Source: Bdellovibrionales bacterium
Lineage (GTDB): Bacteria; Bdellovibrionota; Bdellovibrionia; Bdellovibrionales; UBA1609
Length of the DNA: 64,000 bases
Assembly: GCA_965261545.1 (NCBI GenBank)
Contig: CBDHDF010000011.1
Coordinates: 416,001-480,000 of the forward strand
Direction: 5' to 3'
The position numbers and the translations under genes are program-made. Shown one piece after another: positions 3,706-64,000 of this stretch (the first letter of the stretch is position 1; the number at the start of each line of letters is the position of its first letter). Below the pieces are notes generated by a model, which worked only from the letters and a program-made list of their open reading frames with translations, was not told where the DNA came from and ran no database searches.

Positions 3706-3708
3706 ATG

Positions 3709-13656: not shown

Positions 13657-14753
13657 AGGAACCTCTTTTTAATGATGATTCTTCTGGTTTCTTGCTGGTA
13701 TCCCAAGTGGAGGCTAAACCCTTTGTTCTCCATAATTTTAAATATAATGCGGCAGACTTGGGTTTGACCCACAGGAATTTCATGGTTTTCAAAAATGGAT
13801 TCAAATTGAGGTAAAGCCTTACCAGACCTTGTCATCCATAATCGAATGTCAGAGGTCTTAAGAGCCTTTTTTGATATATTCCAGAGTTCAATATCTATGA
13901 AATAAAGACCTTCATGGTTTAAGCTCTCAATATTGGAAATCATCCCAACTATCTTGCGCTTGATGCCTATTCTTAGCCCTCGGTCTGGAGTAGGGCGCTG
14001 GAGCAATGGAGCCGAACCATGGGAAGGAGGAATAGTCCGATGAGAATAGGAAGTAGGCTGATGGGCAGATGAAATAGATTGGCGAGGAGAGGAAATAGAT
14101 TGGTGAGAAGATGAACGCTTCTTTCTTTGATGGATTTTGTTGGTCTTGTTGGTGACTTTCCTCTGACCATTTTTTTGACTTCTTCGGCTCTTTCTATAAA
14201 CTGCATTGCTTCGGGAAGACCTCCATCGAACCTTTACTAAATCATCGTATTTACTCCCTGAGCTTAGCACCCTCAAGATAAACCCGTAGGTATGGTATTT
14301 GCCATAAACAAAGAGATTGGTGCTCATGGGTCCCTGGGGCTGTATCGTGACATCATTGCCAATAAATTCTATTTGAAAATAATTCTGATTCCCAATGACA
14401 ACTTTTTTGGGGCGTTCATGGAAGCGTAAAATCGTGGATTGCCCCATCTTCAAATAAATAGATTTCATTTTTTCATCATTCATCTCAAGAGTTCTGATAG
14501 AGCCAGCCCTTAGAGATGTTCCATAAAAGAGGATAGCAGCACACATTATGTTTATGCTAAAATTTATCACCCTTATTATTGTCCTAGCCGCTTTTACTGA
14601 TATCGTCATCCGTATCGCTCTTGTCATCCTTACTGCGTTTACCATTTCTGTCACTCTGGTCGCCCTAGTCGCCTTTATGGCCACCGCCGAGCTAGCCACC
14701 CTTGTCGCCTTTATCGCTTTTGCCGTTCTTACAACCAACAGTTTCTTGCTCAT
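13653..14753 (-). CDS. TrbG/VirB9/TraK-like T4SS secreted protein
   Basis: Signal peptide; IYLKMGQSTILRF...V.IG...VTIQP...TNLFVY; position next to virB10. Confidence 0.65.
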   Translation of the reverse strand: MSKKLLVVRTAKAIKATRVASSAVAIKATRATRVTEMVNAVRMTRAIRMTISVKAARTIIRVINFSINIMCAAILFYGTSLRAGSIRTLEMNDEKMKSIYLKMGQSTILRFHERPKKVVIGNQNYFQIEFIGNDVTIQPQGPMSTNLFVYGKYHTYGFILRVLSSGSKYDDLVKVRWRSSRSNAVYRKSRRSQKNGQRKVTNKTNKIHQRKKRSSSHQSISSPRQSISSAHQPTSYSHRTIPPSHGSAPLLQRPTPDRGLRIGIKRKIVGMISNIESLNHEGLYFIDIELWNISKKALKTSDIRLWMTRSGKALPQFESIFENHEIPVGQTQVCRIIFKIMENKGFSLHLGYQQETRRIIIKKRFL

Positions 14754-15376
14754 TTACTGACCTCATGGATAGTTTCATGAATGGTAATTCCGTCAACATA
14801 TAAGCCCATGGGATTCCACACTGTGGGGTTGTTCCGAATAATACGAAAAGACAAGCGGGTGGGGGCAATGAGGGGGATATTGTTCACTCTTACAATTCTG
14901 TCAAAAGAAGCTAAGGCTTGGCTTTGGGTCACAATGGGTTTTATATTAGCGACTGTTTGCTCAATTTTCTTGTTGAATTCTTTTTGGGTAAAGTCTTTTT
15001 TTATTTGGTGTCTCATCTTTTGAAGAAGCCCCTTTGTCGTGAGGGGAGAAATATTTTCAAGAGCTGAGATGGGGTTGGAATCACTCCATGTATAGCGAAG
15101 CCTGATATATTCTTCAAGGAAACGGGCAATGTCCTTTTCAGAAAGATGAATCTCTCTTTTCTCGGAGGAGTAAAACCTCTTCTCCTCTCCATTTTGAAGA
15201 ACCACCACCGGAGGGTTGGTGGACAAGTAGAATGAGAAAATTGTGAGTGAAAAACATAGGAGTCCCAATAAAACTCCCATGAGCTTGTAGAGGTAGAGCA
15301 CCTTGTTGAGGGCCACCCATTGGTTTGAGGGTTGAGTACGATTTTTTGTCACTGTTTTAATCATGGTCTTTGTCAT
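14750..15376 (-). CDS. VirB8-like inner-membrane T4SS protein
   Basis: Single TM, F...YIRLRY.W, terminal NPMGLYVDGI (VirB8-type NPxG motif). Confidence 0.72.
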   Translation of the reverse strand: MTKTMIKTVTKNRTQPSNQWVALNKVLYLYKLMGVLLGLLCFSLTIFSFYLSTNPPVVVLQNGEEKRFYSSEKREIHLSEKDIARFLEEYIRLRYTWSDSNPISALENISPLTTKGLLQKMRHQIKKDFTQKEFNKKIEQTVANIKPIVTQSQALASFDRIVRVNNIPLIAPTRLSFRIIRNNPTVWNPMGLYVDGITIHETIHEVSK

Positions 15377-16640
15377 GTTTTTCTCCTTCTTCCAAACTTG
15401 AATGGATATCCTTAGACGTTGATTTAAAATCTGATTTAGAATTTGACTCAGAGCTTGGCTTAGAGTCTGATCTAGAGTCTGGCTTAGGAGTTGATTTGGC
15501 AGTATTTTTAGGAGCCACTTTGGAAGTTTCCAGTGAAGTTTGATGCCTCCATATATTTCTTATGGGCGATAGCCATCGACTTTCTCCAAACTTGGCTGGT
15601 TTCCATGGTGAACCCGTGGACAATTCTTCGGATAACTCTTTGGTTGGCCTCAATGAGTCTTTGGAATCTCTTAATTCTGCGCCGATGCCCATATGTGAGC
15701 CGCCGAAACCTGTGACTGCGGTGAAAGTTCTAGCTGCTTTGGTCGATCGAATCGCCCTTGTCGGTCTAGTCAGTTGCCCCATTGAGCCCATGAGTGAGGA
15801 GGAGCCAGCAGGTGGTGGTGTCTCTGTGTTCGTAGATGATCCACCTAGAGTTCTTGCAAGAGCCCCTCGACCTTTTCGACTTAAGATTCCTTTCAGAGTT
15901 CCACTTAAAGCAATGGCTGGAGCCAGTGCTAAGGCGGATGCTGTTTTGGAGAGTCCGTCATTGATAAGAGACCTTGTGGTCAGAGGAGTAAACAACATGG
16001 ACAAACCAATGCAAAGGTTCATCATAATGGTGTATAAGAAGTTTTCCATATCTACCACTTGGGGATTAGTGGCTATTTTTAGAAGTATCACACCGAGGAT
16101 GGACCACATGATTTTCCATAAAACCACATTGATGAGCCCCTTGTAGAGATTCATTGCTATAAATGCAGTGTTTGCTGAAACATACATGAGTATCATTAAG
16201 GGAGAGCAGACATAAAGAACATGCCAAACAAATTGAACAAGGATATTGGCAATAAAAATACCTGCGTAAGCCACAACATAGGAGATCACACACAGGATGA
16301 ATACAATGCTTTCTCGTAGCTTGAGCCAACTCACTTCCATTTTCTGATAATTGGTTTCTAGGTGAACCAATAGATCCTTTAATTGGCCCATGGCATGTAT
16401 TTTCTGAGCAATTCCATCACCCAAGAAAGCAATTGTATTGAGACATTCTTCAAATGAAATAAGCATAATTATGGAGATCACAACCCTTTTTAGAATTTCA
16501 TGGACATTGGGGTTTTGTGATGGAATTTTAAAGAATTCTAAAATAATGGCTAAGAGGGTAAATGGAACCAAGAGAAGCCAGTAAAGCTCTCTTATATTCC
16601 CATGGATTTCTTGGCACACCTCGGATAAACCTTCAAACAC
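15357..16640 (-). CDS. VirB6/TrbL-like polytopic membrane protein
   Basis: Several TM helices, a Ser/Lys-rich tail and T4SS operon position. Confidence 0.7.
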   Translation of the reverse strand: MFEGLSEVCQEIHGNIRELYWLLLVPFTLLAIILEFFKIPSQNPNVHEILKRVVISIIMLISFEECLNTIAFLGDGIAQKIHAMGQLKDLLVHLETNYQKMEVSWLKLRESIVFILCVISYVVAYAGIFIANILVQFVWHVLYVCSPLMILMYVSANTAFIAMNLYKGLINVVLWKIMWSILGVILLKIATNPQVVDMENFLYTIMMNLCIGLSMLFTPLTTRSLINDGLSKTASALALAPAIALSGTLKGILSRKGRGALARTLGGSSTNTETPPPAGSSSLMGSMGQLTRPTRAIRSTKAARTFTAVTGFGGSHMGIGAELRDSKDSLRPTKELSEELSTGSPWKPAKFGESRWLSPIRNIWRHQTSLETSKVAPKNTAKSTPKPDSRSDSKPSSESNSKSDFKSTSKDIHSSLEEGEKHDKDHD

Positions 16641-17368
16641 TATTTAAACCTCCGTAGTGAGAAATCAGGTTTGAGAGACTTCAAACCATTTTTCATATCT
16701 TTGTTAAATCTATTGAAAGCAACAACGCTATCTTTTCCGTACTTATTCGTCATGGCGAGATATTCACCTTGGAGTTTGAGTATCTGATTAAGAGTGTGTA
16801 AAATCTTGGCATTGCTTTCGGCCGTCATGCGCATGGCCCCCTTGGGTGAGGCCCCTCGGCTTTGCATGGAAATAATTTTTGAATTTTCCTCTTGCCTTTG
16901 GGCGTATGGCCCAATAAGCCCCACCATTTTAATGCTTTCGGCGACACTTTGGTCATGGAGCATCTGCATGGTGGATTCCATGCTGCGTGGAACTTCACCA
17001 TAGACCTTTACAATGGACTTATAGGCTCTATTAAAATCTTTCAGTCCACTTAAGATTTTGGCATCTTTGATGGGGAGTGAATGAAGCAGACCCACGGAAT
17101 TCTCTAGCCCCTCATTGATCAGTCTTAAATAGTTGTCCTTATTTTTCTCAGTTTCGAGAATCACTCTTAGTTGCTCATATCTTTTCATATTTTCTGAAAG
17201 AATGTTCGCCAAGTAGGGAACCTGTGCCCATCCAGCACCTGCATCGCCTAAGAAAGCATGGGAGCATGGAACTGCAAAGAGATGAATCCCTATGGAAAGA
17301 AGAATGGCTTTTCGGATAAAGTCTCTTGTTTGTCGGATAAAATGTCTTATTCTATTGAGTGGTTCTAT
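16640..17368 (-). CDS. VirB5/TrbJ-like protein; frame extends upstream of the listed TTG to a probable ATA start
   Basis: Frame is open 52 codons upstream of 17212 and encodes a signal peptide (ILLSIGIHLFAVPCSHA); AAGGAGG precedes ATA at 17368. Confidence 0.6.
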   Translation of the reverse strand: MEPLNRIRHFIRQTRDFIRKAILLSIGIHLFAVPCSHAFLGDAGAGWAQVPYLANILSENMKRYEQLRVILETEKNKDNYLRLINEGLENSVGLLHSLPIKDAKILSGLKDFNRAYKSIVKVYGEVPRSMESTMQMLHDQSVAESIKMVGLIGPYAQRQEENSKIISMQSRGASPKGAMRMTAESNAKILHTLNQILKLQGEYLAMTNKYGKDSVVAFNRFNKDMKNGLKSLKPDFSLRRFK

Positions 17369-20100
17369 GGGGCCTCCTTTTTGCCTTCAAAGGCAATTTT
17401 TTTAAGAATTTCTAACTTTGGTAGTTTTGGATATTTTCTTGCCATGGCTTCAATGGCAGCCTTATCAAAACCATCTGTGGTGCATATCCAGTAGCTCAAA
17501 GGGTCTGGGGTGAGCCGAATGACAGCCTTATTTTCATCTTGCATAAAAAAGAACTCACTGAAACTCCCCTTTTCAAGGGAAAGGCTTTTGATGACTTCCA
17601 CTTCGTCGTTGTTAAAGTCCATGACCTCTTGGAAATCCTTCCAGTCTATTTTCTTTTGGCGGAGAATAAAGACACTTGCTGTATTGGGAAAAATGGCATT
17701 TTTGATTTCTTGGCTAGAGAGAAAATCCTTGTAGTTTTGGCTAATACACCAAATGCCTCCATTGAACTTCCTAAAGGTGCGGTAGGCTTCCATGGCAAAG
17801 CTGAGGCCACTGGGTGTTTCAAAGAGTTTCCATGCCTCGTCGATAATGAGAAGGTAGGGAGTGGAGAGGTCACGGGCAGCTTCACTCTTTATAAAATCTG
17901 TAAAGAGGAGCAAGAAAACGTTTTGTAAATCGGGGTAGGCGTCAAGCCCCTTCGTCTCAATAGTGATAAGGTCTTTAGTGAGCTTCACATTGCTGGGACC
18001 ATCCAGCATTTGACCGTAGGCGGTGTTTCCCGTCCAAGAGTAAAGAGTTTGAGCAAAGTTTCTCATCTCTAAGACTTCATGTTCAGAGAGGACTTTTCTC
18101 AAATCTGATAAAATGGGCATTCGACCCTTGGTTTGTTCATTGTTGGCTTGCTTATGGATTTGCTCACTGGCCTGCCCATGATTTTCTTGTTCATTGTTGG
18201 TTCGCTTATTGGTTTGCTCATTGACCTGCTCACTGTTTGCTTGCTCATAGGTTTTAAAGATAGCCTCTTCGAGAAGGGCTTTTTCTCTCTTGGGAAGCCC
18301 TCTTTTTTCCTCATCCTTCAGGATGGACTCCAGCACAGCCAAGATCAGCTTCACCTTTGATGTTGTGGGCGTGGTTTGAGTCGTAGGGGTGGTCTGGTCT
18401 TCTGACGAAAGATCAAACATATTGAGCCTTATCTTTGAGTCTATGTTGAGGTTGATAAACTCACCCCCGTGGACTTCAAGCAGCCTTTGGGAAGAAGCCC
18501 CGTTGTCCACCCAAATGATTTTGGGTCTTGGAGTTTGGGTGCAAAATTGCAACATCATTTGAGAAATAGTAAAGCTCTTGCCCACGCCAGAGCCGCCAAA
18601 GATGAGGGCGTTCCAGTTGGTAAGCTCTTTGGCAAAGGGGTCCATGGAAAACAAAACTCCATATCTATTTGGAAACAAGCACACGGGTTTGCTGTGCCCC
18701 CTCCAATAGGAATAAAGGGGCATCAAGTGGGCGACATTGGAGCTTTTCATTTTTTTGGGTCTGAGCCCATGAGTGCTTCCGGGAAAAGTCATGGAAAAAG
18801 CTTCAAAACCTGGCAAGGTCTCCACCACCCCCTCAGATTGATTCATTCGCTTAAAGGCACTCAGTACCTCATCTGCTTTTTCTGTTAGCTCCTCTCTTCC
18901 CTTGCCCCAAATAATCACATTGAGATCTGTGGAGACGAGTTTTTCTGAACCCTCAAGCAGCTCTCTCATTAAATCCTCAATCTGATAGAGCTTGGACTCA
19001 GATTCTAGGTCACTGATATTTTGCGGACTTGAGGTCATGGAGTGGGCAAGCCTTCTTTGCACTTTTAACTTCTCAACCTCTGACTTTTGCCTGTGAATCT
19101 GGATATTTTGCAAAAGCCAAAAGTGGAAGGGTAGGCTTGTGAGATGATGGATCATGGCCGCATGGGTTTCTTCTTCGGGAAGGGTCTTCATTGTGATAAC
19201 TTGAAAGAAGTAGTTCCCACACTTTATACAATCCTCATAGATGCCTATATCCGTAAAGAGGATTTGGTGGGCAAGGCTTGGGGCAAAAAGGTCGTAAAAC
19301 TCTGACAAAGGCTCATGGAGGCCAAATTTTGACGAAGGGGGCTCAAGTTCCCCAAGTTCTAGTGAAGGCTCAAATTCCCCAATCCCTGACGAAGGCTCAA
19401 AGTCTTCAAGTTCCTCAATATCTGCTGGGGACTCAGTATCACCAAGATCAGAGAGACCAGAAAAGTCACCAAGGTCAGCAAGTCCGCCATGCTCCTTCCA
19501 ATGGGGAGGGCCAACCTTCTCACTGCGAGAGAGATTGAAGTATTCAAACAACAGGCCGGCCCACTGTGAACTCTCAAGTTCTACAGGGGCAAGTCCTCCA
19601 TCCTTGAGTAAAAAGAAAAGTTGCCTGCGGTTTCTTTCAAAGGTTTTCTTGTGTTCATCGTACTCTTGCTTGGAAGACTGCTGAAATTTCTCTTGAGATT
19701 TCCAAAATCCTTGGCGTTTATACTTAAGGGGCTCTCCCCGAAGAAACAAGTAAGTTTCTGGCAAGAAATACTCGCCTTGGTGCTTGTTCAAGAAATCAAT
19801 TCTTGCCTGCACTATCTCTTGTTGTGCTTTATTTGAGGTCACCGAGATTTTTTCATGCTCTTTGATGGTTTCAGAGACATGGGGAGTTAACCTGTAAAAG
19901 ACCTGGAGAGATAGACCTTCAGGAATGGAAGTCAGAAGGCTCCCCATCCTTCTATTAAAGTTGTTGACGCTCTCGGTGGAAGTGCAACTTATATCCATGC
20001 CATTGAGTTTAAATCCTGCCCCTAGGGAGCCATCGGAAAAAACCATGAGATTTTCATCAAAGTGCCAAATGGGTAGTTTATCTGCGAGAGCGTGAGTCAT
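17365..20100 (-). CDS. virB4: VirB4/TraC conjugative ATPase
   Basis: NALIFGGSGVGKSF Walker A, LIIDEAWKL Walker B, RTFRKFNGGIWCISQ. Confidence 0.92.
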   Translation of the reverse strand: MTHALADKLPIWHFDENLMVFSDGSLGAGFKLNGMDISCTSTESVNNFNRRMGSLLTSIPEGLSLQVFYRLTPHVSETIKEHEKISVTSNKAQQEIVQARIDFLNKHQGEYFLPETYLFLRGEPLKYKRQGFWKSQEKFQQSSKQEYDEHKKTFERNRRQLFFLLKDGGLAPVELESSQWAGLLFEYFNLSRSEKVGPPHWKEHGGLADLGDFSGLSDLGDTESPADIEELEDFEPSSGIGEFEPSLELGELEPPSSKFGLHEPLSEFYDLFAPSLAHQILFTDIGIYEDCIKCGNYFFQVITMKTLPEEETHAAMIHHLTSLPFHFWLLQNIQIHRQKSEVEKLKVQRRLAHSMTSSPQNISDLESESKLYQIEDLMRELLEGSEKLVSTDLNVIIWGKGREELTEKADEVLSAFKRMNQSEGVVETLPGFEAFSMTFPGSTHGLRPKKMKSSNVAHLMPLYSYWRGHSKPVCLFPNRYGVLFSMDPFAKELTNWNALIFGGSGVGKSFTISQMMLQFCTQTPRPKIIWVDNGASSQRLLEVHGGEFINLNIDSKIRLNMFDLSSEDQTTPTTQTTPTTSKVKLILAVLESILKDEEKRGLPKREKALLEEAIFKTYEQANSEQVNEQTNKRTNNEQENHGQASEQIHKQANNEQTKGRMPILSDLRKVLSEHEVLEMRNFAQTLYSWTGNTAYGQMLDGPSNVKLTKDLITIETKGLDAYPDLQNVFLLLFTDFIKSEAARDLSTPYLLIIDEAWKLFETPSGLSFAMEAYRTFRKFNGGIWCISQNYKDFLSSQEIKNAIFPNTASVFILRQKKIDWKDFQEVMDFNNDEVEVIKSLSLEKGSFSEFFFMQDENKAVIRLTPDPLSYWICTTDGFDKAAIEAMARKYPKLPKLEILKKIAFEGKKEAP

Positions 20101-20408
20101 AGAATCCTCTTTTGTCTTTTGGGTTCAAATTTTCCTACATTGCCAGCACTATAAACCCCTGGAGTCATCTTGTAGGTTAGGAGGTGAAGGAAGTAGTTCT
20201 CAGGCTTATTTCTTTTGACGAAATACAAGACCACAGCCATCATCACGGGTAAAATGAAAACAAGGTAGGTGGCCAAGAAGGTGGAGCCAAAAAATAGATT
20301 CATGGTGGCTGCAAATAGGAGAATAAAAAGAAGATCGTGAGCCTCCATGCCCACAATCTTAAGTTTGGCATCTAGTCTTCGATGAATTCTTGAAGTCTCC
20401 AAAGCCAT
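20097..20408 (-). CDS. VirB3-like membrane protein
   Basis: Two TMs, 103 aa, ATGA overlap with virB4. Confidence 0.65.
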   Translation of the reverse strand: MALETSRIHRRLDAKLKIVGMEAHDLLFILLFAATMNLFFGSTFLATYLVFILPVMMAVVLYFVKRNKPENYFLHLLTYKMTPGVYSAGNVGKFEPKRQKRIL

Positions 20409-20867
20409 TTAGTACCCCACCGCAGCTTGGAACCAGCTAATAATATGGGGAGCAAGAAAGCCCACAATACTGCATACAATCACCATGATGATTCTGCCCT
20501 TGGCGGCACCATCTCCTGTAAGGGCGAGAATCACCGCATACACAAGGCCCAAAACACTTATAAGGGGAAGTATCACGGTCATAAGCTGATTTGTGAGCCC
20601 CTTCATGCGGCTTTCAAAGCCACTTCCAAGAAGCTGAGACCACGCTGTTTCTGAGTAGTAAAGGGCCAACATCACCAAGAAAAAAATGGCGACCCACTTC
20701 AAAGAAGCCCTTAAGGTTGTGAATTGATTCATTTTGTCCACTTCGTTCGCCACGTTTGCCTTGTTCGTCTCGTTCACCTTGCTTACTTCGTTCGCCTCGT
20801 TTACTTTGCTCATCTCGCCCGCTTTGTTCATATTGCTCATCTCGTTTACCTTACTCATCTTGCTCAC
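20409..20867 (-). CDS. TrbC/VirB2-like pilin with N-terminal repeat extension
   Basis: Signal sequence plus two hydrophobic helices ending GFLAP.II.W; first gene of the virB2-3-4 order. Confidence 0.7.
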   Translation of the reverse strand: MSKMSKVNEMSNMNKAGEMSKVNEANEVSKVNETNKANVANEVDKMNQFTTLRASLKWVAIFFLVMLALYYSETAWSQLLGSGFESRMKGLTNQLMTVILPLISVLGLVYAVILALTGDGAAKGRIIMVIVCSIVGFLAPHIISWFQAAVGY

Positions 20868-21264
20868 CTTCTGGGCTTCCCATAATAAGAGACCTACTAT
20901 AAGGACCGATATTCATAATCACATCCCCCTGGGTAAGAGCATTTGAGTGGCCTTCACCCACTGACTTGCGTGTCTTAAATTTTCCATTCTTTTTGATGAC
21001 CACCTCCACTCGATAGCGAGTTCGATCTCCCGTGGATAAAATGGGCTTGAGGTAGTATTGATTCTCTGGGTGTATATCAATTTTCAGTCGATATTCCCCA
21101 AAGTTATGCTCATGAAAAGCAACTCCTGCTGGGAAATGACGCTTTTCTTCTTTATCAAACCACCACAATTGAAATACTTTGGATTTCTTATCTCCTTGAT
21201 ATTCTTTAATTTTCTTATTTTTTTGATCTTCATGAGATGATTGAAAGTTCTTTGTTTTTTTCAT
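20851..21264 (-). CDS. Hypothetical ICE protein (possible small DNA-binding protein)
   Basis: GGAGG RBS; two similar beta-rich halves (AGVAF..GEYRLKID / VGEGH..GDVIMNIG). Confidence 0.55.
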   Translation of the reverse strand: MKKTKNFQSSHEDQKNKKIKEYQGDKKSKVFQLWWFDKEEKRHFPAGVAFHEHNFGEYRLKIDIHPENQYYLKPILSTGDRTRYRVEVVIKKNGKFKTRKSVGEGHSNALTQGDVIMNIGPYSRSLIMGSPEGEQDE

Positions 21265-21366
21265 GATTTATCCTCCAGAATTTGTTTTCAGAATCATCGA
21301 TTCTGATTCGGGTTCTTAGTTCTTATAAATCGTTGATATTTTTCCCATTCAACATAAATACATTCC

Positions 21367-21642
21367 CTAATTGTTCAGTTCATCCAGCATAGATTCCTTC
21401 ATTAGCTCTAAAGACTCATTAATAAGGTGATCTGTTTGAGACCAATCCAGATGAAGCACCATAGATATTTCTAAAATAGAAAAGTGATACCAAAATCGAA
21501 GTATAATAGAAATTTTATGTTTCTCTGGTAACCTTGCCACATGTTTCCTTACCCACTTTCTTCCATATTCAATAAGTTTCTTTTCATAAATGAATTGCTT
21601 CAAAAATAAATCCTCGCTTTTATAGGTTTGTAAGTCTTCCAT
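21367..21642 (-). CDS. Sigma-70 region-4-like HTH protein
   Basis: VARLPEKHK..IILRFW..FSILEIS..L pattern. Confidence 0.65.
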   Translation of the reverse strand: MEDLQTYKSEDLFLKQFIYEKKLIEYGRKWVRKHVARLPEKHKISIILRFWYHFSILEISMVLHLDWSQTDHLINESLELMKESMLDELNN

Positions 21643-21645
21643 CCA

Positions 21646-22056
21646 CTAAGAAATGCGACGTAAATCTCCTTTCACGGGGTGTTGATGTTCATAACCACGA
21701 CCACCGCCATCACTATGACTATAGACATGCTGTTTATCCTCATGAATTTGGAGTTTTTGAGCCATATTAGCCTCTTTAGTCTTCTGAGCCTTCTTAAGTC
21801 CTTGAGACTGAGATTTGAGATGCTGACTTTTTGGAGGCTGAGACTTCGCATTCTCGTCATTGAGTACATCGTCAACTTCCTTGAGCATTTTTTCTAAATC
21901 AGCACACATGGGGTAGTAGTAGGATTGGCTTCTCAAAGCTTCCTCCTGGCTATCCCTAGGCTGCCAATTGCATGAATAGCAAATCGTGTAGGATTCTCTT
22001 TCTTCCAAACCTAAGCATTTGCACCTGGGGCATTGATTCAACGTATTCGTCTTCAT
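21646..22056 (-). CDS. Hypothetical zinc-ribbon protein
   Basis: CPRC...CYSC near the N-terminus; first long ORF of the leftward operon. Confidence 0.55.
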   Translation of the reverse strand: MKTNTLNQCPRCKCLGLEERESYTICYSCNWQPRDSQEEALRSQSYYYPMCADLEKMLKEVDDVLNDENAKSQPPKSQHLKSQSQGLKKAQKTKEANMAQKLQIHEDKQHVYSHSDGGGRGYEHQHPVKGDLRRIS

Positions 22057-22366
22057 ATTCGTATCCTTTCTTGATATTGATCTTGTAAATGCTCATATCC
22101 AGAGGATCGGAGCATACGTTTTGTTTATTGTCCTTAATCATTTCTGTTATGTAGTTTCTGACTCACCATCCTCTATCAGTTCAAAGGAAATCACAAAATG
22201 GCCAAATTTATACTTTCCCGTTCCTAAAGAGACAAAAATTGTCAGTCGTTACATTTAATTATTTTCTTTAATTTAAATTCTTTTCTTCAATTTCTTGGGT
22301 CGATAGAAATCAAATTCCAAACCTCCAAAATAATTAATTTAAAATTTCACCCCTCACGTTTATAGT

Positions 22367-22382
22367 TGCGAAATCTATGCCA
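22367..22382 (-). promoter_or_regulatory. Sigma54 (-24/-12) promoter facing the transfer operon
   Basis: Minus strand TGGCATAGATTTCGCA, with GG and GC at consensus spacing; IHF-like TTTCAATGACTTA at 22400-22412. Confidence 0.65.
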
Positions 22383-22553: not shown

Positions 22554-22582
22554 TTGAAATAAATCATCTTTTATTGTATAAT
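22554..22582 (+). promoter_or_regulatory. Sigma70-type promoter for the signalling cassette
   Basis: TTGAAA-17 bp-TATAAT upstream of the activator gene; region is AT-rich so a chance match is possible. Confidence 0.5.
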
Positions 22583-22664: not shown

Positions 22665-24038
22665 TTGAGTGAAATATTGAAAGATCCATTAAAAAGCAAA
22701 GTCGTCAGTGTGCATGTTATAGAGGACAGCAAATTAGACTCTGAACTCATTCAAGATCTCATCAAAGTAGAACTAAGAAAGTGTGGATTGACCCCCAAGG
22801 TTTCAGCCACATTCAAAGAAAAAAGCTCTTATAGTGCTTTAAATCAAAATAACTATGATATTGTGGTTTTTGATATTGATCTAGATCGAAGAATGGCAGG
22901 GATTGACCTTCTTGGTATGTTTACTAAAAAGGTACAGTTTCCGATCATCTCCTCTTGCCGTGAGTCAGATGATATCGTAAAAAAAGCTTACAGTCTAGGT
23001 TGTGAGCACTTTTTAAACAAGCCTATCAAGCAGTCAAAGATTGCCCATCTGGTCGATCAATATACAAAGCAAATAAACTCCAAGAGCATCTTGCGAGTTA
23101 TAAAATCAAGATACATGACCCAAGATGAAGAGACCCTCAGTGAGCTTAATAAAGTCACTTCATCGAAAAATGCTCATTTATTTGGACCCACAGGGGTAGG
23201 CAAACAAATCGTCGCTGAACTTATTCATCATATACATTATGGCAACTCAAACCCCTTTGTTGAAAAGAACTGTTCATCTATCACAGAGTCTCTTGCGGAG
23301 TCCTTCCTTTTCGGCCATGAAAAGGGAGCCTTCACAGGTGCCAACAACCAAAGAAAGGGTATCTTTGAGCTTGCCAAGGGAGGCACCGTCTTCTTAGATG
23401 AAATCGATAAGACATCAAAGTCTTTTCAAGCCAAGTTATTAAAAGTTATAGAGAAAAAGGAAATTCAAAGGGTTGGATCTGAAAAATCAACACCTGTTGA
23501 CTTCTCGCTGGTCACAGCAAGTAGTACAGACCTTAATTTCCTTGTGGAAAACGATAAATTCTTACCTGATCTTTGGGAAAGGCTTCAGGTGGAGGTCATT
23601 CACTTGAAACCTCTGAAAGAACGTCCCTTGGATATAGAGCTACAAATGCAGAATTTCATTAGGCTTCATGAGTCAGGAAGACTGTTTGTCATCTCTGAAG
23701 AAGCCCATAAGTTTTTGATGAGTTACCACTGGCCAGGAAATACAAGGGAATTAAAAAACGTTGTGGACAGCTTACAAAGGAAGAATATCAAGATTCTTGA
23801 ACTCAAAGACCTTAAATTCTTACAAAAAAAATCCATCAGACAGCAATATGGCCTCGTCAATCAACAAATACTTCAGGCCATGGAACAAAATGGACTCAAA
23901 AATGTCGTCAATCAAATATGCCGGGAAGCAGTTCATCATTTTTTCACTCAAAATGATGGGAAAAGAAGAATCACAATGAGGCAGCTTGAAATTAGCTCAG
24001 ATACTTTATACAGACACTTAAAAGAAAATATGGGGTAA
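22665..24038 (+). CDS. Sigma54-dependent response regulator (NtrC-type: REC-AAA+-HTH)
   Basis: REC (VIED, VVFDIDL, FLNKP); GPTGVGKQ; FGHEKGAFTGA; FLDEI; WPGNTREL; C-terminal HTH (TLYRHLK). Confidence 0.93.
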   Translation: MSEILKDPLKSKVVSVHVIEDSKLDSELIQDLIKVELRKCGLTPKVSATFKEKSSYSALNQNNYDIVVFDIDLDRRMAGIDLLGMFTKKVQFPIISSCRESDDIVKKAYSLGCEHFLNKPIKQSKIAHLVDQYTKQINSKSILRVIKSRYMTQDEETLSELNKVTSSKNAHLFGPTGVGKQIVAELIHHIHYGNSNPFVEKNCSSITESLAESFLFGHEKGAFTGANNQRKGIFELAKGGTVFLDEIDKTSKSFQAKLLKVIEKKEIQRVGSEKSTPVDFSLVTASSTDLNFLVENDKFLPDLWERLQVEVIHLKPLKERPLDIELQMQNFIRLHESGRLFVISEEAHKFLMSYHWPGNTRELKNVVDSLQRKNIKILELKDLKFLQKKSIRQQYGLVNQQILQAMEQNGLKNVVNQICREAVHHFFTQNDGKRRITMRQLEISSDTLYRHLKENMG

Positions 24039-24041
24039 AAA

Positions 24042-24260
24042 ATGAATTTAACAAAAGAAGAAATAAAGCACGATTTGAAAAGAAATATAAGTTCTATTTT
24101 ATCTGGAACAACAATGATAATGAATAAGATTCCTAAGATAGATATTTATATTCGAGAAACAATAGAAGAAATAGAAAAGCAATGTGAACAAACATTTAAA
24201 CTGTTAGACATTTTCACGGAAAGTAAAGATGAAAATAAGAAAAAGCCAAAGGAGGTATAA
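24042..24260 (+). CDS. Stand-alone HisKA/DHp-like small protein
   Basis: IKHDLKRNISSI resembles an H-box, followed by a helical hairpin; no ATPase domain. Confidence 0.55.
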   Translation: MNLTKEEIKHDLKRNISSILSGTTMIMNKIPKIDIYIRETIEEIEKQCEQTFKLLDIFTESKDENKKKPKEV

Positions 24261-24261
24261 A

Positions 24262-24582
24262 ATGAGAAAAATATGGACCATACTTGTTGCTATGCTCGGA
24301 ATGTCGAGTAATGCATCTTCCGCATACTCTGGTTGCTATGATGAAGCCATGGAAGTTTCAACAGAAAGCAACCTTGAAGTGAGTCTAGAACAAAGTGCAG
24401 AAGAAGATTTTGATGAACTTGATAGAATCATGGATTTATACCCACATGCTAGTATTGATGAAAAAGTTGGAATGAGCTTTAAAGCACATAGAATAGCGGA
24501 TCGTCTTGAGCGTCAAGGTTTTGATGTTGCTGATTCTATGTCTCAATCATCAAGAACATGTGACTATTGTGTGAAACCATAA
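24262..24582 (+). CDS. Small secreted protein, candidate YcaO substrate / signal precursor (106 aa)
   Basis: GGAGG RBS before ATG 24262; signal peptide MRKIWTILVAMLGMSSNASSA; acidic body; tail SMSQSSRTCDYCVKP. Confidence 0.6.
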   Translation: MRKIWTILVAMLGMSSNASSAYSGCYDEAMEVSTESNLEVSLEQSAEEDFDELDRIMDLYPHASIDEKVGMSFKAHRIADRLERQGFDVADSMSQSSRTCDYCVKP

Positions 24583-24627
24583 CATTCAATCATTATTGAT
24601 GGCATAAGAAAGGATATAAATTCAAGA

Positions 24628-26184
24628 ATGAAAAATAAATTTATTTATATTATTTTATTTATATTCATTATTGTTATAACTTATAGTTTCATTCGTGAGC
24701 AAAGGAATAAGTCAATGTTGATTCAGACAAATTTAATAAGTTTTGAACCAGAAGACACAATGGACCCCACAAGACTCAGGTTTGTCCAAGAATATTTTGT
24801 GCTTGATAACGTCACGGCAAAGCTCACTCAAGTGGGAGACGATGGTGAATATAAAAATGATCTTGCTGAGCATATTAGTTTCTCTGATGATAAACTCACC
24901 ATAGATGTTCAATTAAAGAATGATGCTAGATTTAGTGATGGAAGCCCTATTTTAGCTCAAGATGTGGCTCAATCATTCAAAAGATCCATATTATGGGGAG
25001 TGCCCCATATTGATCTAAAAAATCTTTGGATAGGAGCCGATCAGCTTAAATCTATAAATGAAGATATACCAGGCATTGAGGTTTTATCCAACAAAGAGTT
25101 GCGACTCAAGCTTATCAAACCCACTAAAGAAGTTCTTTTTTTTCTCACAATAACCGACCTTGCCATACTCCATAAGAGTCAATATACAAAGACTCATTTA
25201 AAAGTTTCTGACTGGGAAAGAGTAACTTCTGGTGCTTATAGAATAGGCTACACCAATGAAGGTAGAGTCATGCTCATTTCTAATAAGAGTTCTCATAATT
25301 TTAAAGAGGCCATGCCTCAGAAAGTCGTTTTCAATGGGTATAAGAACGCCAATGTGATTCGACAAATTGAAGAAAAGAGCTTGGACTTTGGAATGTTGAC
25401 TCTCAGTGAATATTTTCCTAATGTAGAAAAAATTGAATCCTCCAAGGATTTTGATATTGTGAGCAATAAGACAGATGGTGTCGTTCATATTGTTCTCAAT
25501 GCCGCATCAGGGCCATTTGAAAATATTGAGAATCGTCAATGGATCCAGAAAAAAATGATGGAAACCTACAAAATTGATGAAAAAGACTCTTCTGTTTTAA
25601 CCAAAGCTCTTCAGTTTTTTCTCCCAAACTCCAAGGGTCATAAAGATGGTGCTGACGTTCTAAGCATTCTCAAAGACATTAATACTTCAAATATTCCTGA
25701 AGAATTAAAAAAAGGAATCACCATAAAAACTCTAGAAGGAATGAAGTATTTTTTACCGGATAATATGGAAATAAAATTATCTCAAACCTTAGGCATTCCA
25801 GTAAATTTGGAAATCAATATTCCAAAAAAAGAGTATTTTCAATCCATTGACAAAGAAAGAACTTTTGATGCCACTATTATGGCTATCTCCATGGACTATA
25901 AAGTTCTCAATGAGGCTCTCAATCTTCAATATTTATCTGAAAATAGTCCCCTTATCGATCCCACAGGGAAAATAAAAGAACTTCTTAAGTCCTATCAAGG
26001 TGAAGATGATCTTGAGAAAGAAAGTGAAATCATTAATAAGATATTGAATCAAATGATTTACGATTCAGAATCAATTCCCATTTTTTATTTTGCATCCCCA
26101 TTTCTTATAAAAAAAGATACCATTCAAAGCTCAAGTGTGAATTTTCATGAACCCATTAAATTTCACAAAATGGTGATGAAATGA
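24628..26184 (+). CDS. Family-5 (OppA/DppA-like) solute-binding protein, membrane-anchored
   Basis: DLAE...S.D..T....LK..ARFSDGSPILA.DV..SF, SGAYRI, C-terminal IPIFY; no permease or ABC ATPase nearby. Confidence 0.85.
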   Translation: MKNKFIYIILFIFIIVITYSFIREQRNKSMLIQTNLISFEPEDTMDPTRLRFVQEYFVLDNVTAKLTQVGDDGEYKNDLAEHISFSDDKLTIDVQLKNDARFSDGSPILAQDVAQSFKRSILWGVPHIDLKNLWIGADQLKSINEDIPGIEVLSNKELRLKLIKPTKEVLFFLTITDLAILHKSQYTKTHLKVSDWERVTSGAYRIGYTNEGRVMLISNKSSHNFKEAMPQKVVFNGYKNANVIRQIEEKSLDFGMLTLSEYFPNVEKIESSKDFDIVSNKTDGVVHIVLNAASGPFENIENRQWIQKKMMETYKIDEKDSSVLTKALQFFLPNSKGHKDGADVLSILKDINTSNIPEELKKGITIKTLEGMKYFLPDNMEIKLSQTLGIPVNLEINIPKKEYFQSIDKERTFDATIMAISMDYKVLNEALNLQYLSENSPLIDPTGKIKELLKSYQGEDDLEKESEIINKILNQMIYDSESIPIFYFASPFLIKKDTIQSSSVNFHEPIKFHKMVMK

Positions 26185-27191
26185 AGCACGCTCAATCCTT
26201 AAATATTTTAAAGAATGTAATAAATTATTTTCAATCACTACCAGATCATCAATTAAAAGTGAAGGATATTAGTTCCGAGCATTTTACTCTTCCTTGCATG
26301 TTCTCTGTATCTGTTAACCACCGAGGAAATCAAATGCAAGGGTTCGGTCAATCTGAATCTAAAGATAAGGCTATTTTTATTGCTTTTATGGAAATTATTG
26401 AAAGAATCCTAATACCAAAGCCTAAAGACTTGACCTACTCACAGAAATATCTTTTTTTCTCTATCAGAAAAAATTATGAGGATCTTTTAAAGTCATTTCC
26501 TAGATCGAGAAATTGGGTTGAAGGCTCTTCCAATGGTTTTGCCATTCATTCGAGTAGAAAAATGGCTCAAAAATCAGCTCTTGACGAACTTATTGAGCGG
26601 CATGTTGTACTTAAAGCTCTTGTTTCTCAGTTTTCTCCGGCCAAGGTGTTAGCACCTAAAATACTTACCCATGGGAGCTATGTGATTCCCTCCGAGATGA
26701 CCTATGAGTTTTATGCTTGGTTAGGACCTTTGGGCAGACATGTGGTTCTTTTTAAATGCCAGATGAATTCAAAGGTGATCTATGGGTTTGGATGTGAGAA
26801 GAGTCTAGAAAGAGCCAAGGAGAAGGCTTTTTTTGAAGCTAGCTCTAGGATTATCGCACTCCACCGATCTCAGAATCCTTCCTTTGTAGTTCTCAATACG
26901 AGTAAAAATTTCCTTTATCATTGGTATGAGGAGACTGCCTGGACAGGAGGGTTTCTTAAAAAAGCCTCCCATGACATGCCCTCTATAGATCACCACCTTT
27001 CATACAGTGATTTTTGGTTTGGTGAACCTCCAAAAAATGAATTTCTCCACCAACTGGGCCTCCATGTGGTCAAGGCTGTTTCCCCAAAGATTCAGCCTCT
27101 CTTTGCAGGACACTGGAAGGCCAAATATATGAACCCCGAAGCTCTAGGGAATGACTACAGCTTTCCAGAAGACATGCATATGATTGGGTAA
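26181..27191 (+). CDS. YcaO-family protein (stand-alone, short)
   Basis: GFGQS..K..AIFIAFMEIIER, SSNGFAIH....AQKSALDELIERH, GFGCE...RAKEKAFFEA, VVKAVSP; ATGA overlap with the SBP gene. Confidence 0.85.
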   Translation: MKHAQSLNILKNVINYFQSLPDHQLKVKDISSEHFTLPCMFSVSVNHRGNQMQGFGQSESKDKAIFIAFMEIIERILIPKPKDLTYSQKYLFFSIRKNYEDLLKSFPRSRNWVEGSSNGFAIHSSRKMAQKSALDELIERHVVLKALVSQFSPAKVLAPKILTHGSYVIPSEMTYEFYAWLGPLGRHVVLFKCQMNSKVIYGFGCEKSLERAKEKAFFEASSRIIALHRSQNPSFVVLNTSKNFLYHWYEETAWTGGFLKKASHDMPSIDHHLSYSDFWFGEPPKNEFLHQLGLHVVKAVSPKIQPLFAGHWKAKYMNPEALGNDYSFPEDMHMIG

Positions 27192-27197
27192 ATTGAT

Positions 27198-28946
27198 ATG
27201 AAAAATCGATCCATACGAATCTCTATTTTATTGGCAGCCACCATGAGTCTTTTGGCTCTTGCCACTGTGATGCTGATATTCTTATCAAAGCACGAGGTGG
27301 AAAGAATTCAAGCCAATACTCAATCCCTGGTGCGTGAGCAAATAGAACTCACAGTTAAGAAATTAGATATCTATAGAGTGGTCAATCAAATATCATATAT
27401 TCTCAATATCACTTTCAATCTGGATCGTGTGAATGGAGTCAATATCTTTGATTCCAAATGCAACTTAGTGGATAAGCAACCTGTTAATTTTAAAATCCCA
27501 TGGGACTGTAAGAGCCCTCACCCTGATTCTATGGTTCTTTATAAATCTCAAACCTCGATTTCTGACTCTTCAGGAGCCCCCAAATATATATTGGCTCGCC
27601 TCAAAGATGAGCCCCATATTCTCTTGAATCACCATAGCTTGAAGGTTCTCGTCATATCATTAGTTTTGATTCTTATCACTTTACTTTGCTTGAACTTTTT
27701 AATGAAAAAACATATTCTAAGGCCCATTGACGATTTGGTAAGAATCATTAGAAAACCTGGCGCCCTTGAGAGGAATAGTCAGAAACAAAAAAAGCTCCCC
27801 TTGGAACTAAGAGAAATTTATAATGATGTTTTGTCTCGTGACGAAATCATCCAGCAGAATAAAATTGAACTACTCAAAAGAAATGAAATGGAAACACGAA
27901 GCCATTTAAGTGAGCAAGTCGCCCATGATATCAGGTCACCCATTATGATTCTTAGAGACTACCACTTAAATCACTTAAATTTACATAGAAACGAGGATAC
28001 AAAAGAAAGCGTATACCTCAATGCCATTAACGATCTGGACCTCCTCACCAAGCAATTGATTGAAGACTCTAGTGAGTATGCAAAAAATGTCAATCTCGTG
28101 GGCTTAATGGATGCCCTCGTCGACATGAAAGAAGTTGAATTTCAACAAGGGCCTAAATCTAAGATATTGTTGAATCCTCAGTCTAAGAATTTGAAGATTA
28201 AAACCAATCCCACAAAATTAAAATTTGTTCTTTCCAATATTATCAACAATGCAAGGGAGGCTTCTAAGCATGATGATCCTTGTGAGATTCAAATCAAGTT
28301 GACAAGAGGGGGGCCAGACGCCTTCATTGAAATTGAAGATAACGGGAAAGGTATCAAAAAATCAGACCTCAAGAGAGTTTTTTCCCGAGGGGTGAGCATA
28401 GACAAGCCTGGAGGCAACGGCTGGGGACTTAGTGATGCTAAAAAATTTATTGAAAGCCAAGATGGGACCATCGAGATAGATTCAGAACTCGACAAGGGAA
28501 CCACTGTTAGAATAAAGCTCCCCATATTTCTCTCAAATTTTCAATCTCGTGGGCAGGCTCCCTTTGACCATGTTTTGGTGGAAGACTACAAGCTCAGCCA
28601 ACTTCTATGGCTTGGAAAGGCCGATAGCAAGAAGCTCAACTTTGCAGCCTTCTCCTCACCCTCAGAATTTTTAGAGAATATGGAACTGGTGAGTCCCAAT
28701 GCCACCTTGTATATCGACTCTCACTTTCCCGATTTTCCCATGCGTGGCGAAGAATGGGCCAAGGAGCTTTACAATAAGCACGGATTCAAAGAAATATATA
28801 TGTGCTCTACATCCTCCATCGACATCACCGACATGCCATGGGTCAGAGGGTGCGTTGCCAAGCATAAGCCTTTTGAGATTGTCACTACAACCTCTGTTTC
28901 TTTAACATCTCATGTAAAGAAAACGTTCCCGTGGAGTACCCTATGA
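27198..28946 (+). CDS. Membrane sensor histidine kinase with C-terminal receiver-like domain
   Basis: Two TMs; QVAHDIRSP H-box; NIINNA.EA; IEDNGKGI; GNGWGL; SELDKGTTV; REC-like tail (VLVED, LYIDS). Confidence 0.92.
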   Translation: MKNRSIRISILLAATMSLLALATVMLIFLSKHEVERIQANTQSLVREQIELTVKKLDIYRVVNQISYILNITFNLDRVNGVNIFDSKCNLVDKQPVNFKIPWDCKSPHPDSMVLYKSQTSISDSSGAPKYILARLKDEPHILLNHHSLKVLVISLVLILITLLCLNFLMKKHILRPIDDLVRIIRKPGALERNSQKQKKLPLELREIYNDVLSRDEIIQQNKIELLKRNEMETRSHLSEQVAHDIRSPIMILRDYHLNHLNLHRNEDTKESVYLNAINDLDLLTKQLIEDSSEYAKNVNLVGLMDALVDMKEVEFQQGPKSKILLNPQSKNLKIKTNPTKLKFVLSNIINNAREASKHDDPCEIQIKLTRGGPDAFIEIEDNGKGIKKSDLKRVFSRGVSIDKPGGNGWGLSDAKKFIESQDGTIEIDSELDKGTTVRIKLPIFLSNFQSRGQAPFDHVLVEDYKLSQLLWLGKADSKKLNFAAFSSPSEFLENMELVSPNATLYIDSHFPDFPMRGEEWAKELYNKHGFKEIYMCSTSSIDITDMPWVRGCVAKHKPFEIVTTTSVSLTSHVKKTFPWSTL

Positions 28947-39095: not shown

Positions 39096-39416
39096 ATGAT
39101 CTTTCACCCATTATCTTCGATAAGGAGGTCATTATTTCTCATGAAAAATCAAAAAAAGGCGGGAGAGATCAAGACATGCTCTAAGTGCTTCAGAGAGTTG
39201 CATTTAGATCAGTTTTATTCTAAAGGAAATCGCATAGATAGCTGTTGCAAGGCGTGTAAAAAAGCGCAAGTTCGGTCTACATATGTAGCCAGAAAACATC
39301 CCATAAATTTAAGAAAACTCCAAGAGTTTGTTACTATGGCCTGTGAGCTTGAAATGAAAAGGCTCGACCAGATTATCAACCAACTCGATGAAATCATCGA
39401 AAGGAGAACAAGATGA
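39096..39416 (+). CDS. Small CxxC zinc-binding protein coupled to the recombinase
   Basis: CSKC...CKAC; ATGA overlap with the recombinase; AAGGAGG suggests a start at 39141. Confidence 0.55.
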   Translation: MIFHPLSSIRRSLFLMKNQKKAGEIKTCSKCFRELHLDQFYSKGNRIDSCCKACKKAQVRSTYVARKHPINLRKLQEFVTMACELEMKRLDQIINQLDEIIERRTR

Positions 39417-63336: not shown

Positions 63337-64000
63337 TCCTTATGCCAATCCCATAGGTTGAAGCTGCCATCAAAGTAATTCATCTCTTTGAGTTTATATT
63401 TACCTTTGGCACAGTAAACCATTCTTGTGTGCATGAGAGGCAAGATCATATAATTTTTTAGGAGCCCAAAATGAACCTCTTTAAGGAGGGAGATATATTT
63501 TGATCTATCGATTTCATTTTTTGACTTGTTTAAAAGTTCATTTAACTCTTTGTTGTCAGCGAAGAAGTTAAACAAAGGGTGATTGAATAAATAGATCATT
63601 TCCACAATGGGGTCCAAAGCGCTGACTCCAGAGTATATATACAAAAGGTCATATTCCTTTTTTTGTAAGAGGAGTGAATCACTCTTGGCATCTGAGAAAA
63701 TAATATTTAAATTCACACCAAAATCTTTGAGCTTCTCTTTTATCATAAAAGGTATAGGGCTTTCACCCATAATACTAAGGAGAAGTAAATTTATCTCCAA
63801 TTTCTCTTTTGTGGGCTGTGAATCATATAATTTTTCAATCTTTGATTCTTGAATTCTTGATATATTATTTTTTGTAAAAATTTGATCTGTTCTTTCTGCA
63901 ATTTCTTCATTGATTTTAGTATTTTTAAAGGCTTTCTTGATAAGAGAAAAAATATGTTTTCTTTTATCGTCAGTGTTCATTTTGTCAGAATTAACATTTG
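63333..64000 (-). CDS. Family-5 solute-binding protein, C-terminal part (runs off the window)
   Basis: YDLLY, D...R..LLKEVH..LL....ILPLMH; frame open to 64000; ATGA overlap with YcaO, as in copy 1. Confidence 0.7.
   Translation of the reverse strand, partial: NVNSDKMNTDDKRKHIFSLIKKAFKNTKINEEIAERTDQIFTKNNISRIQESKIEKLYDSQPTKEKLEINLLLLSIMGESPIPFMIKEKLKDFGVNLNIIFSDAKSDSLLLQKKEYDLLYIYSGVSALDPIVEMIYLFNHPLFNFFADNKELNELLNKSKNEIDRSKYISLLKEVHFGLLKNYMILPLMHTRMVYCAKGKYKLKEMNYFDGSFNLWDWHKE

Follow-up and report, generated by a model that had tools for sequence, protein, structure and literature searches.

A candidate YcaO-tailored peptide signal encoded with a binding protein and a kinase in conjugative elements of a Bdellovibrionales bacterium

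Peptide pheromones read by histidine kinases are textbook for Gram-positives and rare in Gram-negatives. The Agr (AgrD/AgrB/AgrC/AgrA) and ComQXPA systems encode a ribosomal precursor side by side with its tailoring enzyme, the membrane kinase that serves as receptor, and a response regulator. A second kind of system, LuxP-LuxQ, TorT-TorS, and ChvE-VirA/VirG, places a transporter-less periplasmic binding protein beside a kinase (or hybrid kinase), and ChvE-VirA also controls a type IV secretion system (T4SS). A third kind is carried by mobile elements: RapI-PhrI of ICEBs1 and PrgZ/cCF10 of pCF10 are circuits that act on transfer genes through a small protein, exported by Sec and active in its C-terminal part, and through an OppA-like binding protein. 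Here we describe a six-gene operon at 22665-28946 of a 64,000-nt stretch (the window; G000:C11:416001-480000) of a Bdellovibrionales genome, which encodes a YcaO enzyme, a substrate-binding protein (SBP), a sensor kinase, and a small exported protein beside genes for a T4SS.

The operon combines features of all three kinds. Like Agr and ComQXPA it would pair a ribosomal precursor with its tailoring enzyme, kinase, and regulator, but the tailoring enzyme is a YcaO, export would be via a Sec signal peptide, an OppA-type SBP would stand between peptide and kinase, a sigma54 activator would be reached via a phosphorelay, and the hosts are Gram-negative Bdellovibrio-like bacteria. In LuxP-LuxQ, TorT-TorS, and ChvE-VirA the ligands are small molecules made elsewhere or by the host, whereas here the gene for a candidate ligand and its tailoring enzyme are in the operon and the SBP belongs to the peptide-binding family 5. 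Phr and cCF10 are unmodified, are imported, and act on cytoplasmic receptors; in contrast, this operon encodes no permease, its receptor would be a kinase, and its peptide is proposed to be tailored by YcaO.

All six genes are on the + strand and are separated by gaps of 3 to 45 nt or overlap slightly (Table 1), in agreement with an earlier note on this DNA (the original prediction), which had described a tightly spaced operon of these genes. The ycaO start overlaps the SBP stop by 4 nt. Hidden Markov model (HMM) searches place both the YcaO and the SBP_bac_5 protein above their Pfam cut-offs, and a Sec-type signal peptide is present on the protein that had been called small and secreted (106 aa from the ATG at 24262; 117 aa from an alternative ATG at 24229). 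Genes for a permease, E1/ThiF, TfuA, a dehydrogenase, a protease, and an exporter had been noted as missing from the operon, and indeed none is encoded there. The regulator has a GAFTGA loop in its translation, and many NCBIfam bacterial enhancer-binding protein (bEBP) models match it, all under cut-off. The SBP has a hydrophobic anchor segment at its N-terminus. In the kinase, some 115 aa form a periplasmic loop and the C-terminus is extended by a receiver-like stretch of some 130 aa; NCBIfam kinase models cover residues 190-445. Pfam gave no match to any of eight small proteins tested, NCBIfam matched no small protein and gave the YcaOs only weak SagD-type matches far under cut-off, and neither database matched the 72-aa protein. 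PADLOC assigned no defence family to the SBP, YcaO, or kinase of either triad in the window (six proteins). Overall, the proteins of this module belong to the YcaO, SBP_bac_5, histidine kinase, and bEBP families and are distinct from E1-dependent cyclodehydratase systems.

Table 1. Coordinates of the signalling genes, promoter-like elements, and associated conjugation genes in the window
Feature	Coordinates	Strand	Evidence
Sigma54-dependent response regulator	22665..24038	+	Sigma54_activat 167.3 bits, Response_reg 42.1 bits, AAA_lid_14 (Pfam)
72-aa protein, H-box-like His motif	24042..24260	+	Motif conserved across related loci
Small exported protein, C-x-x-C C-terminal tail	24262..24582	+	Signal-peptide-like N-terminus
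Membrane-anchored SBP_bac_5/OppA-like protein	24628..26184	+	Pfam 83.4 bits vs cut-off 32.4
Stand-alone short YcaO, 336 aa	26181..27191	+	Pfam YcaO 46.6 bits vs cut-off 25.7
Sensor histidine kinase	27198..28946	+	2 transmembrane segments, H-box, HATPase_c 71.3 bits
Sigma54-type -24/-12 element, 9 of 12	22367..22382	-	Faces T4SS operon; consensus match
Best sigma70-like promoter match, 11 of 12	22554..22582	+	Upstream of regulator gene; consensus match
Divergent T4SS/conjugation operon	10018..22141	-	VirB4/TraC, TrbC pilin, TrbI, CagX/VirB9, FtsK_SpoIIIE
Serine recombinase	39413..41323		ICE context
Type-B kinase, non-hybrid, 499 aa	60837..62336	-	HATPase_c 49.2 bits
Type-B YcaO, 340 aa	62314..63336	-	Pfam YcaO 49.0 bits
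Type-B SBP gene, 3' part	63333..64000	-	Gene continues past window end

The module is not confined to this genome. A word-indexed protein search returned 18 relatives of the YcaO, and with a profile of these, 68 of 1.84 billion cluster representatives scored E<=1e-30 or better and 791 reached E<=1e-10. Named relatives are from Bacteriovoracaceae, Bacteriovoracales, and Bdellovibrionales metagenome-assembled genomes, where they are annotated as 'YcaO-like family protein' or hypothetical, and when 401 genomes of the phylum were searched whole, 110 had a related YcaO (E<=1e-5). We fetched about 19 kb around each of the best-scoring 80 of about 165 matches; L057 and L090 gave no YcaO open reading frame (ORF) and were excluded, so all counts rest on 78 loci. 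Genes were called with a simple ORF routine and labeled by profiles seeded with window proteins, and for the first 39 loci we compared the labels of the 222 nearest neighbours with Pfam. Peptide-pattern scans, both limited by the patterns used, gave one locus in genome contigs and four in metagenomes.

Within this set the SBP gene is adjacent in 57 of 78 loci (from 50 genomes), and the triad proposed from the window is conserved in its exact order, SBP>YcaO>kinase, in 39. In seven more, SBP>YcaO is not followed by the kinase, which lies elsewhere or is missing; 11 show a second order (YcaO>small>SBP>kinase>sigma54 regulator), and the SBP gene is lacking in 21. In 71 loci the YcaO has a kinase within four genes. 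A full-length sigma54 regulator occurs within four genes in 15 of the 39 SBP>YcaO>kinase loci and in 7 of the 11 second-order loci. A quick maximum-likelihood tree built from the YcaO sequences has one well-supported group for the no-SBP type, holding 20 of its 21 rows, and another for the second order, with 9 of 11 rows. Downstream genes vary among relatives.

The short YcaOs without an SBP gene have a setting of their own (L050, L051, L054, L058, L059, L061, L062, L070-L072, L074, L076, L080, L081, L087, L089, L093, L097, L101, L117). Upstream are a GNAT acetyltransferase and a Haem_oxygenas_2-type iron enzyme, and downstream, in convergent orientation, lie genes for an OmpR-type regulator and a kinase, accompanied in some loci by a B12-radical SAM gene; no VirB4 is nearby.

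The original prediction had proposed the protein at 24262-24582 as the substrate of the YcaO, and small proteins of its kind, with a Sec signal and a Cys in the C-terminal tail, prove to recur across loci. Using a crude ORF caller and our own crude signal-peptide score, we identified a candidate small ORF at or just before the SBP start in 47 order-1 loci (3 from this genome), 40 of them with a signal-peptide-like N-terminus. Their middle parts are acidic, look helical, and vary greatly. The C-terminal tails are recurrent: commonly a small residue (often Thr/Ser) and one further residue precede Cys, and a single hydrophobic residue ends the protein; the rest are rich in Gly/Ser and hold one or two Cys. 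Among 37 proteins from other genomes, Cys occurs in the last 4 residues in 16 (2.7 expected with the mature part shuffled) and in the last 12 in 23 (8.1 expected). A longer tail pattern, hydrophobic-x(2,3)-Gly-x(12,13)-Cys, fits 14 of the 37 against 0.56 expected (maximum 4 in 1000 shuffles), a descriptive count since the pattern was derived from the same sequences. The window protein fits this pattern. From end to end it can be aligned with its counterpart in L119, a metagenome locus of the same six-gene architecture whose YcaO is 39% identical to that of the window; the two small proteins share 26% identity (pairwise E 6e-10), and both the Gly-to-Cys spacing and the C-x-x-C tail are kept.

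Second-order loci have a signal-peptide protein between YcaO and SBP in 8 of 11 cases. Six of these eight have a Cys within the last 6 residues, and four of the six are 45-56 aa with a Gly/Ser-rich tail and Cys two residues from the end. The small proteins of L066, L085, L088, L094, L095, L099, L110, and L113 are short (45-117 aa). Overall, the small protein beside the SBP gene looks like a precursor, judged from these sequence features. A predicted complex of the YcaO with the mature small protein weakly supports the pairing, with a median score of 0.58 (runs 0.58, 0.65, 0.58) against 0.00 for the best of 3 controls. Of 157 solved complexes, 116 pass the mark used for this score, as do 2 of 215 mismatches, with just 18 of the 157 and both mismatches passing at <=0.60; at least 37% of contacts agreed between runs and the partner's predicted local distance difference test score (pLDDT) was at least 58.

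Turning to the enzyme, a profile of 19 relatives matched MJ1094 (4e-11), McbD (1.5e-7), and E. coli YcaO (3.7e-5) in the PDB. An AlphaFold2 model of the window YcaO, built from an alignment of 81 relatives (pLDDT 95.3; predicted TM-score 0.93), has no extra or fused domain. Every Foldseek match from rank 1 to rank 40 is a YcaO enzyme (among them MJ1094, LynD, M. kandleri YcaO, McbD, E. coli YcaO, TruD, and MusD); E values run from 2.4e-10 to 4.4e-8 over ranks 1-34 and are near 2e-6 for TruD and MusD, and query TM-scores (TMq) are mostly 0.49-0.61 (0.39 for TruD). Residues E71, E74, G119, E136, E139, and R140 are invariant in 81 YcaO sequences, and R75 and E219 are present in at least 90%. The invariant acidic motifs align with the two ExxER helices of MJ1094, helices that in YcaO reportedly bind ATP and Mg2+, so it is unlikely, from its sequence, that this YcaO is catalytically dead, one of the outcomes against which the signalling idea had been set.

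The enzyme thus shares with McbD, LynD/TruD, MJ1094, and E. coli YcaO the fold, the sequence family, and the ExxER acidic motifs. It differs in its length of 336 aa, in having no E1/ThiF-like, RiPP recognition element (RRE; RiPP, a peptide made on ribosomes and modified after translation), TfuA, or dehydrogenase partner and no PxPxP, and in belonging to a family that nearly always has a kinase of a two-component operon nearby (the 71 of 78 loci above). Cys-bearing candidate precursor genes adjoin the SBP or YcaO gene, as in azoline-forming cyclodehydratase systems. The module of L075 includes a Nitroreductase-family gene, which fits azoline chemistry, as azoline dehydrogenases are of this family. 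TfuA had no match in the operon or among the neighbours of relatives; TfuA-independent thioamide-forming YcaOs such as MJ1094 exist, and thioamide or other YcaO chemistry is a possible alternative to azoline.

How might a modified peptide be read? No ABC permease or ATPase family was detected by Pfam among the 222 neighbour proteins of related loci, and none is encoded in the operon, so the SBP appears to work like a sensor co-receptor and not as a transport component. Most kinases of the family of at least 500 aa carry a C-terminal receiver-like extension similar to that of the window kinase. There the extension was recognized by eye, with Pfam silent, and L063 has a weak Response_reg match (24.0 bits, under cut-off). 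The 72-aa protein had been called 'HisKA-only'. This is plausible from a conserved H-box-like His motif and has no Pfam match behind it: the motif, [KR]-H-D-[ILF]-[KN], is common to the window protein and to 65-77-aa genes of L049, L052, and L086, and its His aligns with that of the 71-aa gene of L119 (pairwise E 9e-4). The His-motif genes sit between the regulator gene and the small exported-protein gene. Their arrangement fits a His-Asp-His-Asp phosphorelay, as read from these motifs.

The relay would end at a sigma54 activator. The genome encodes rpoN, and we scored GG-N10-GC sites of 12 positions against the sigma54 consensus. The -24/-12 element that faces the T4SS operon is the sole sigma54-like site in the 22142-22664 intergenic region. 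A T4SS-facing site occurs in all four elements of this kind in the genome (type A 9 of 12, type B 10 of 12), which are of two independent families, in line with the earlier idea that the regulator acts on the transfer genes. Genome-wide, sigma54-like sites occur at 0.106 per kb per strand (score >=9) and 0.024 (score >=10). The window has nine sites of score >=9 on both strands, the other eight elsewhere and most of them inside ORFs. Among related T4SS-linked loci, L099 clearly and L052 probably have T4SS-facing sites; none was found in L073, L077, L079, or L066. In 6 of 11 second-order loci a sigma54-like element with a TGGCC-type -24 box lies just upstream of ycaO, an autoinduction layout, as the operon ends with the sigma54 activator, and a further point of likeness to Agr and ComQXPA. 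Strong sigma54-like sites also precede the regulator gene in three order-1 loci. A small sigma70 region-4-like helix-turn-helix protein is encoded among the first T4SS-side genes (21367-21642, - strand; L007:11200-11856, + strand) and could be a second-tier regulator of transfer genes.

A Pfam search of the genome identified exactly four YcaO genes, each inside the same kind of module. All four modules have regulator, small exported protein, SBP, YcaO, and kinase genes, and opposite each, in divergent orientation, lies a T4SS operon that includes VirB4/TraC, pilin, VirB9, and TrbI genes. Type A comprises two nearly identical copies, the first of the window and one on contig C2; type B comprises two copies about 80% alike, the second of the window and one at C11:219-239 kb. 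The recurrence of SBP, YcaO, and kinase genes at 60837-64000 claimed in the original prediction is therefore real, on the - strand. Identity between types is 27% for YcaO and 24% for the kinase, so the two are old paralogues, and a recent duplication of the triad inside the window is ruled out. The window type-B SBP is 504 aa in full (L007:7334-8848; SBP_bac_5 72.1 bits, 65.6 bits for the other type-B copy), and beyond the window end its module continues with a 95-aa exported small protein and a regulator (L007:9179-10759, Sigma54_activat 181.4 bits). Type-B modules have a plain kinase and no small His-motif gene.

Cargo differs between the copies. After the kinase, the type-A window copy has type I Zorya, a PDC-S06 ATPase, and then a serine recombinase; the C2 copy has an ankyrin PDC-M72A protein, type II Zorya, and then a serine recombinase; the type-B window copy has EruA (1121.5 bits); and the fourth has insertion sequence (IS) elements. 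Since the T4SS side is constant while the cargo differs, the module is part of the backbone of a family of elements like integrative and conjugative elements (ICEs), with the slot after the kinase as a cargo site. The ICE context named in the original prediction stands as regards the T4SS operon and the serine recombinase, while no relaxase was recognized, with no family match within 3709-22056. The T4SS and signalling genes of the C2 twin (L006, G000:C2:24000-43900) are nearly identical to those of the window element, and the two diverge within the 3' end of the kinase gene; the ankyrin PDC-M72A protein of the twin is 1327 aa.

The link to ICEs claimed earlier holds in part. Ten of the 57 SBP-type loci have VirB4 inside the stretch that was fetched, against 0 of 21 no-SBP loci, and the T4SS-linked loci are spread over at least five groups of the YcaO tree, so the association with conjugation recurs elsewhere in several YcaO clades. 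It is not ICE-specific: the cassette is a widespread sensory unit of the phylum that has been carried repeatedly by conjugative elements. Among second-order loci, 5 of 11 adjoin T4SS genes. Several modules with no T4SS link (L042, L046, L048, L056, L063, L068, L078) lie beside IS200-type or DDE transposases, toxin-antitoxin genes (BrnA, HI1420-type, AbiE), or STAND/SNF2 genes, and from such neighbours many copies of the module sit in variable regions.

We propose that the operon produces a YcaO-tailored, Sec-exported peptide that is sensed by the SBP and kinase and here controls conjugation, and put the probability of this at roughly 0.5. The gene at 24262-24582, with its signal peptide, would be translated as a Sec-signal precursor. 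Before export, the cytoplasmic YcaO would use ATP to activate a backbone amide beside the tail Cys; given the chemistry of the YcaO family and the conserved tail, the product would most likely be a thiazoline. Export via Sec, possibly with later trimming, would follow, and a dedicated exporter would be unnecessary because Sec exports the precursor. The anchored, permease-less OppA-type SBP may then bind the tailored C-terminus and, if LuxP-LuxQ and ChvE-VirA are a guide, dock on the kinase's periplasmic loop. Phosphate could pass from the kinase His to the receiver-like domain, to the His of the 72-aa protein, and to the receiver of the regulator; each of these parts, or a candidate for it, is encoded in the operon. 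The activator would open the sigma54 promoter that faces the T4SS, the site being present and its use and the sign of control conjectural, and transfer of the element would then track the concentration of the peptide.

The original prediction, of a peptide signal matured by YcaO and presented by the SBP to the kinase to switch on conjugation, is thus retained in part. The conserved triad, the precursor class, the motifs, and the promoters argue for it; it is not ICE-specific, and the modification, binding, signalling (phosphotransfer), and transcription steps are inferred from sequence. Several further observations weigh against our proposal. Specifically, 47 of 57 SBP-type loci have no VirB4 within the fetched stretch, and five further VirB4 loci of this genome lack the module, so conjugation would be one output among several. 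Two T4SS loci closely related to those of the elements (G000:C10:117000-137000 and C11:255000-275000) have VirB4 split in two ORFs and no signalling module, and are possibly decayed elements. Locus counts overstate independence because the loci are related by descent, and the small ORFs were picked with the crude tools named above. Seven of the 40 small proteins are without Cys in the mature part, the tail pattern is not seen in either type-B small protein of this genome, and a Sec signal peptide is unusual on a RiPP precursor. No E1/ThiF-like, Ocin-ThiF-like, or RRE partner was identified in the operon or among the 222 neighbours, and the operon has no dehydrogenase gene. The C-terminal consensus of the YcaO family is P-x-x-M-H-x-I-G and not the PxPxP typical of cyclodehydratases, and chemistry other than azoline is possible because the best PDB sequence match, MJ1094, is thioamide-forming. 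Finally, the sigma54-like sites are consensus matches, and the type-A site has C for T at one -12 position.

Some of these points would suit a different role for the enzyme, which we consider unlikely overall: the SBP and kinase would sense an outside ligand such as prey or cell-wall peptides, YcaO would modify a protein of the pathway or another cellular protein, and the small protein would be an accessory or decoy. Some YcaOs do take proteins as substrates instead of RiPP precursors (methyl-coenzyme M reductase for the MJ1094 type; E. coli YcaO acts with RimO), and MJ1094 is the closest PDB sequence. The overlap of the SBP and YcaO genes suits co-production, and both the seven small proteins without Cys and the lack of an RRE or leader-binding partner in the operon point the same way. 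However, the C-terminal Cys enrichment (16 of 37 against 2.7 expected) at a fixed spacing from Gly is hard to square with an accessory role. The small gene also stays beside the SBP and YcaO genes in both gene orders, and the complex prediction weakly favours the pair of YcaO and small protein (0.58 against 0.00).

The position of defence genes directly after the kinase raises a second question, whether the module mainly controls downstream anti-phage cargo and not conjugation. This is compatible with our proposal and, as the principal function, rather improbable. The kinase stop overlaps the zorA start (ATGA, 28943-28946) and the + strand shows no terminator-like site from 23007 to 31152, so one transcript may cover the signalling operon and Zorya; moreover, defence genes follow the kinase in 3 of 4 copies (type I Zorya; PDC-M72A and type II Zorya; EruA). 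However, the cargo differs per copy and IS elements follow the fourth, while the T4SS side and the sigma54-like site are constant. No intergenic sigma54-like site of score >=9 lies ahead of the defence genes, the sole + strand site in 22-42 kb being inside zorA, and co-transcription ties these genes to the operon's own promoter and not to the output of the regulator. The related idea that the triad is itself a part of an anti-phage defence system, both window copies being directly upstream of Zorya or EruA, is disfavoured by the constant T4SS anchoring, the varying cargo, the lack of a PADLOC model, and the variable downstream genes of relatives.

Very improbable is an ordinary RiPP antibiotic or bacteriocin cluster, with the two-component system as its cluster-situated regulator (such regulators are common in bacteriocin clusters) and the SBP serving immunity or uptake: the Cys/Gly/Ser-rich C-terminal core resembles linear azol(in)e peptides (L040 and L095 tails), but most 'cores' have a single Cys, the product would exit via Sec as a 45-170 aa protein, the SBP is membrane-anchored and without a permease, the kinase directly follows YcaO in 39 of 78 loci, and no exporter, immunity, protease, or dehydrogenase gene was identified in the operon or the 222 neighbours save the Nitroreductase-family gene of L075.

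The window elements also flank a defence island. Type I Zorya (28943-36313, + strand) comprises zorA, zorB, a short zorC-like gene, and zorD with SNF2 and Mrr domains. The island between the two elements (36720-38984, +; 42241-46513, +; 46653-50756, -; 56646-60761, -) includes a PDC-S06 AAA_13 ATPase, a HamA-like gene and DEAD helicase where GC is 54-57%, an LmuA/Cap4-like nuclease-STAND-TPR protein of 1367 aa, and a NACHT protein that matches EruA above the NCBIfam cut-off. Near the other end of the window (2029-4719, - strand), a DDE transposase (518 aa) adjoins a Mom-family protein (336 aa).

The original prediction knew of no described YcaO-dependent signalling system, and we likewise found none: in the openly accessible literature, searched in full text, no paper turned up on a YcaO that works with a binding protein and kinase or takes part in signalling, and the papers there that mention YcaO, kinase, and precursor peptide concern RiPP mining or bottromycin. 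Returning to the proposed peptide signal, a broader version of it is tentative and, in our view, somewhat against the odds. YcaO-tailored, Sec-exported pheromones read by a transporter-less OppA-type SBP and kinase may be phylum-wide and may have been captured several times by conjugative elements, timing their transfer and, via co-transcription, cargo such as Zorya. They would form a new RiPP class with an adjacent receptor.

To our knowledge, whether predatory Bdellovibrio-like bacteria have a communication system is an open question. If the proposal is true, these bacteria would have one, and it would bring a new tailoring chemistry to cell-cell signalling. As precursor, enzyme, and receptor are all known from the operon, the product could be assayed with its own receptor. 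The result would generalize, because the SBP-type form is frequent, occurring in at least 50 of 400 other genomes sampled. The proposal also provides a testable model of when a family of conjugative elements transfers.

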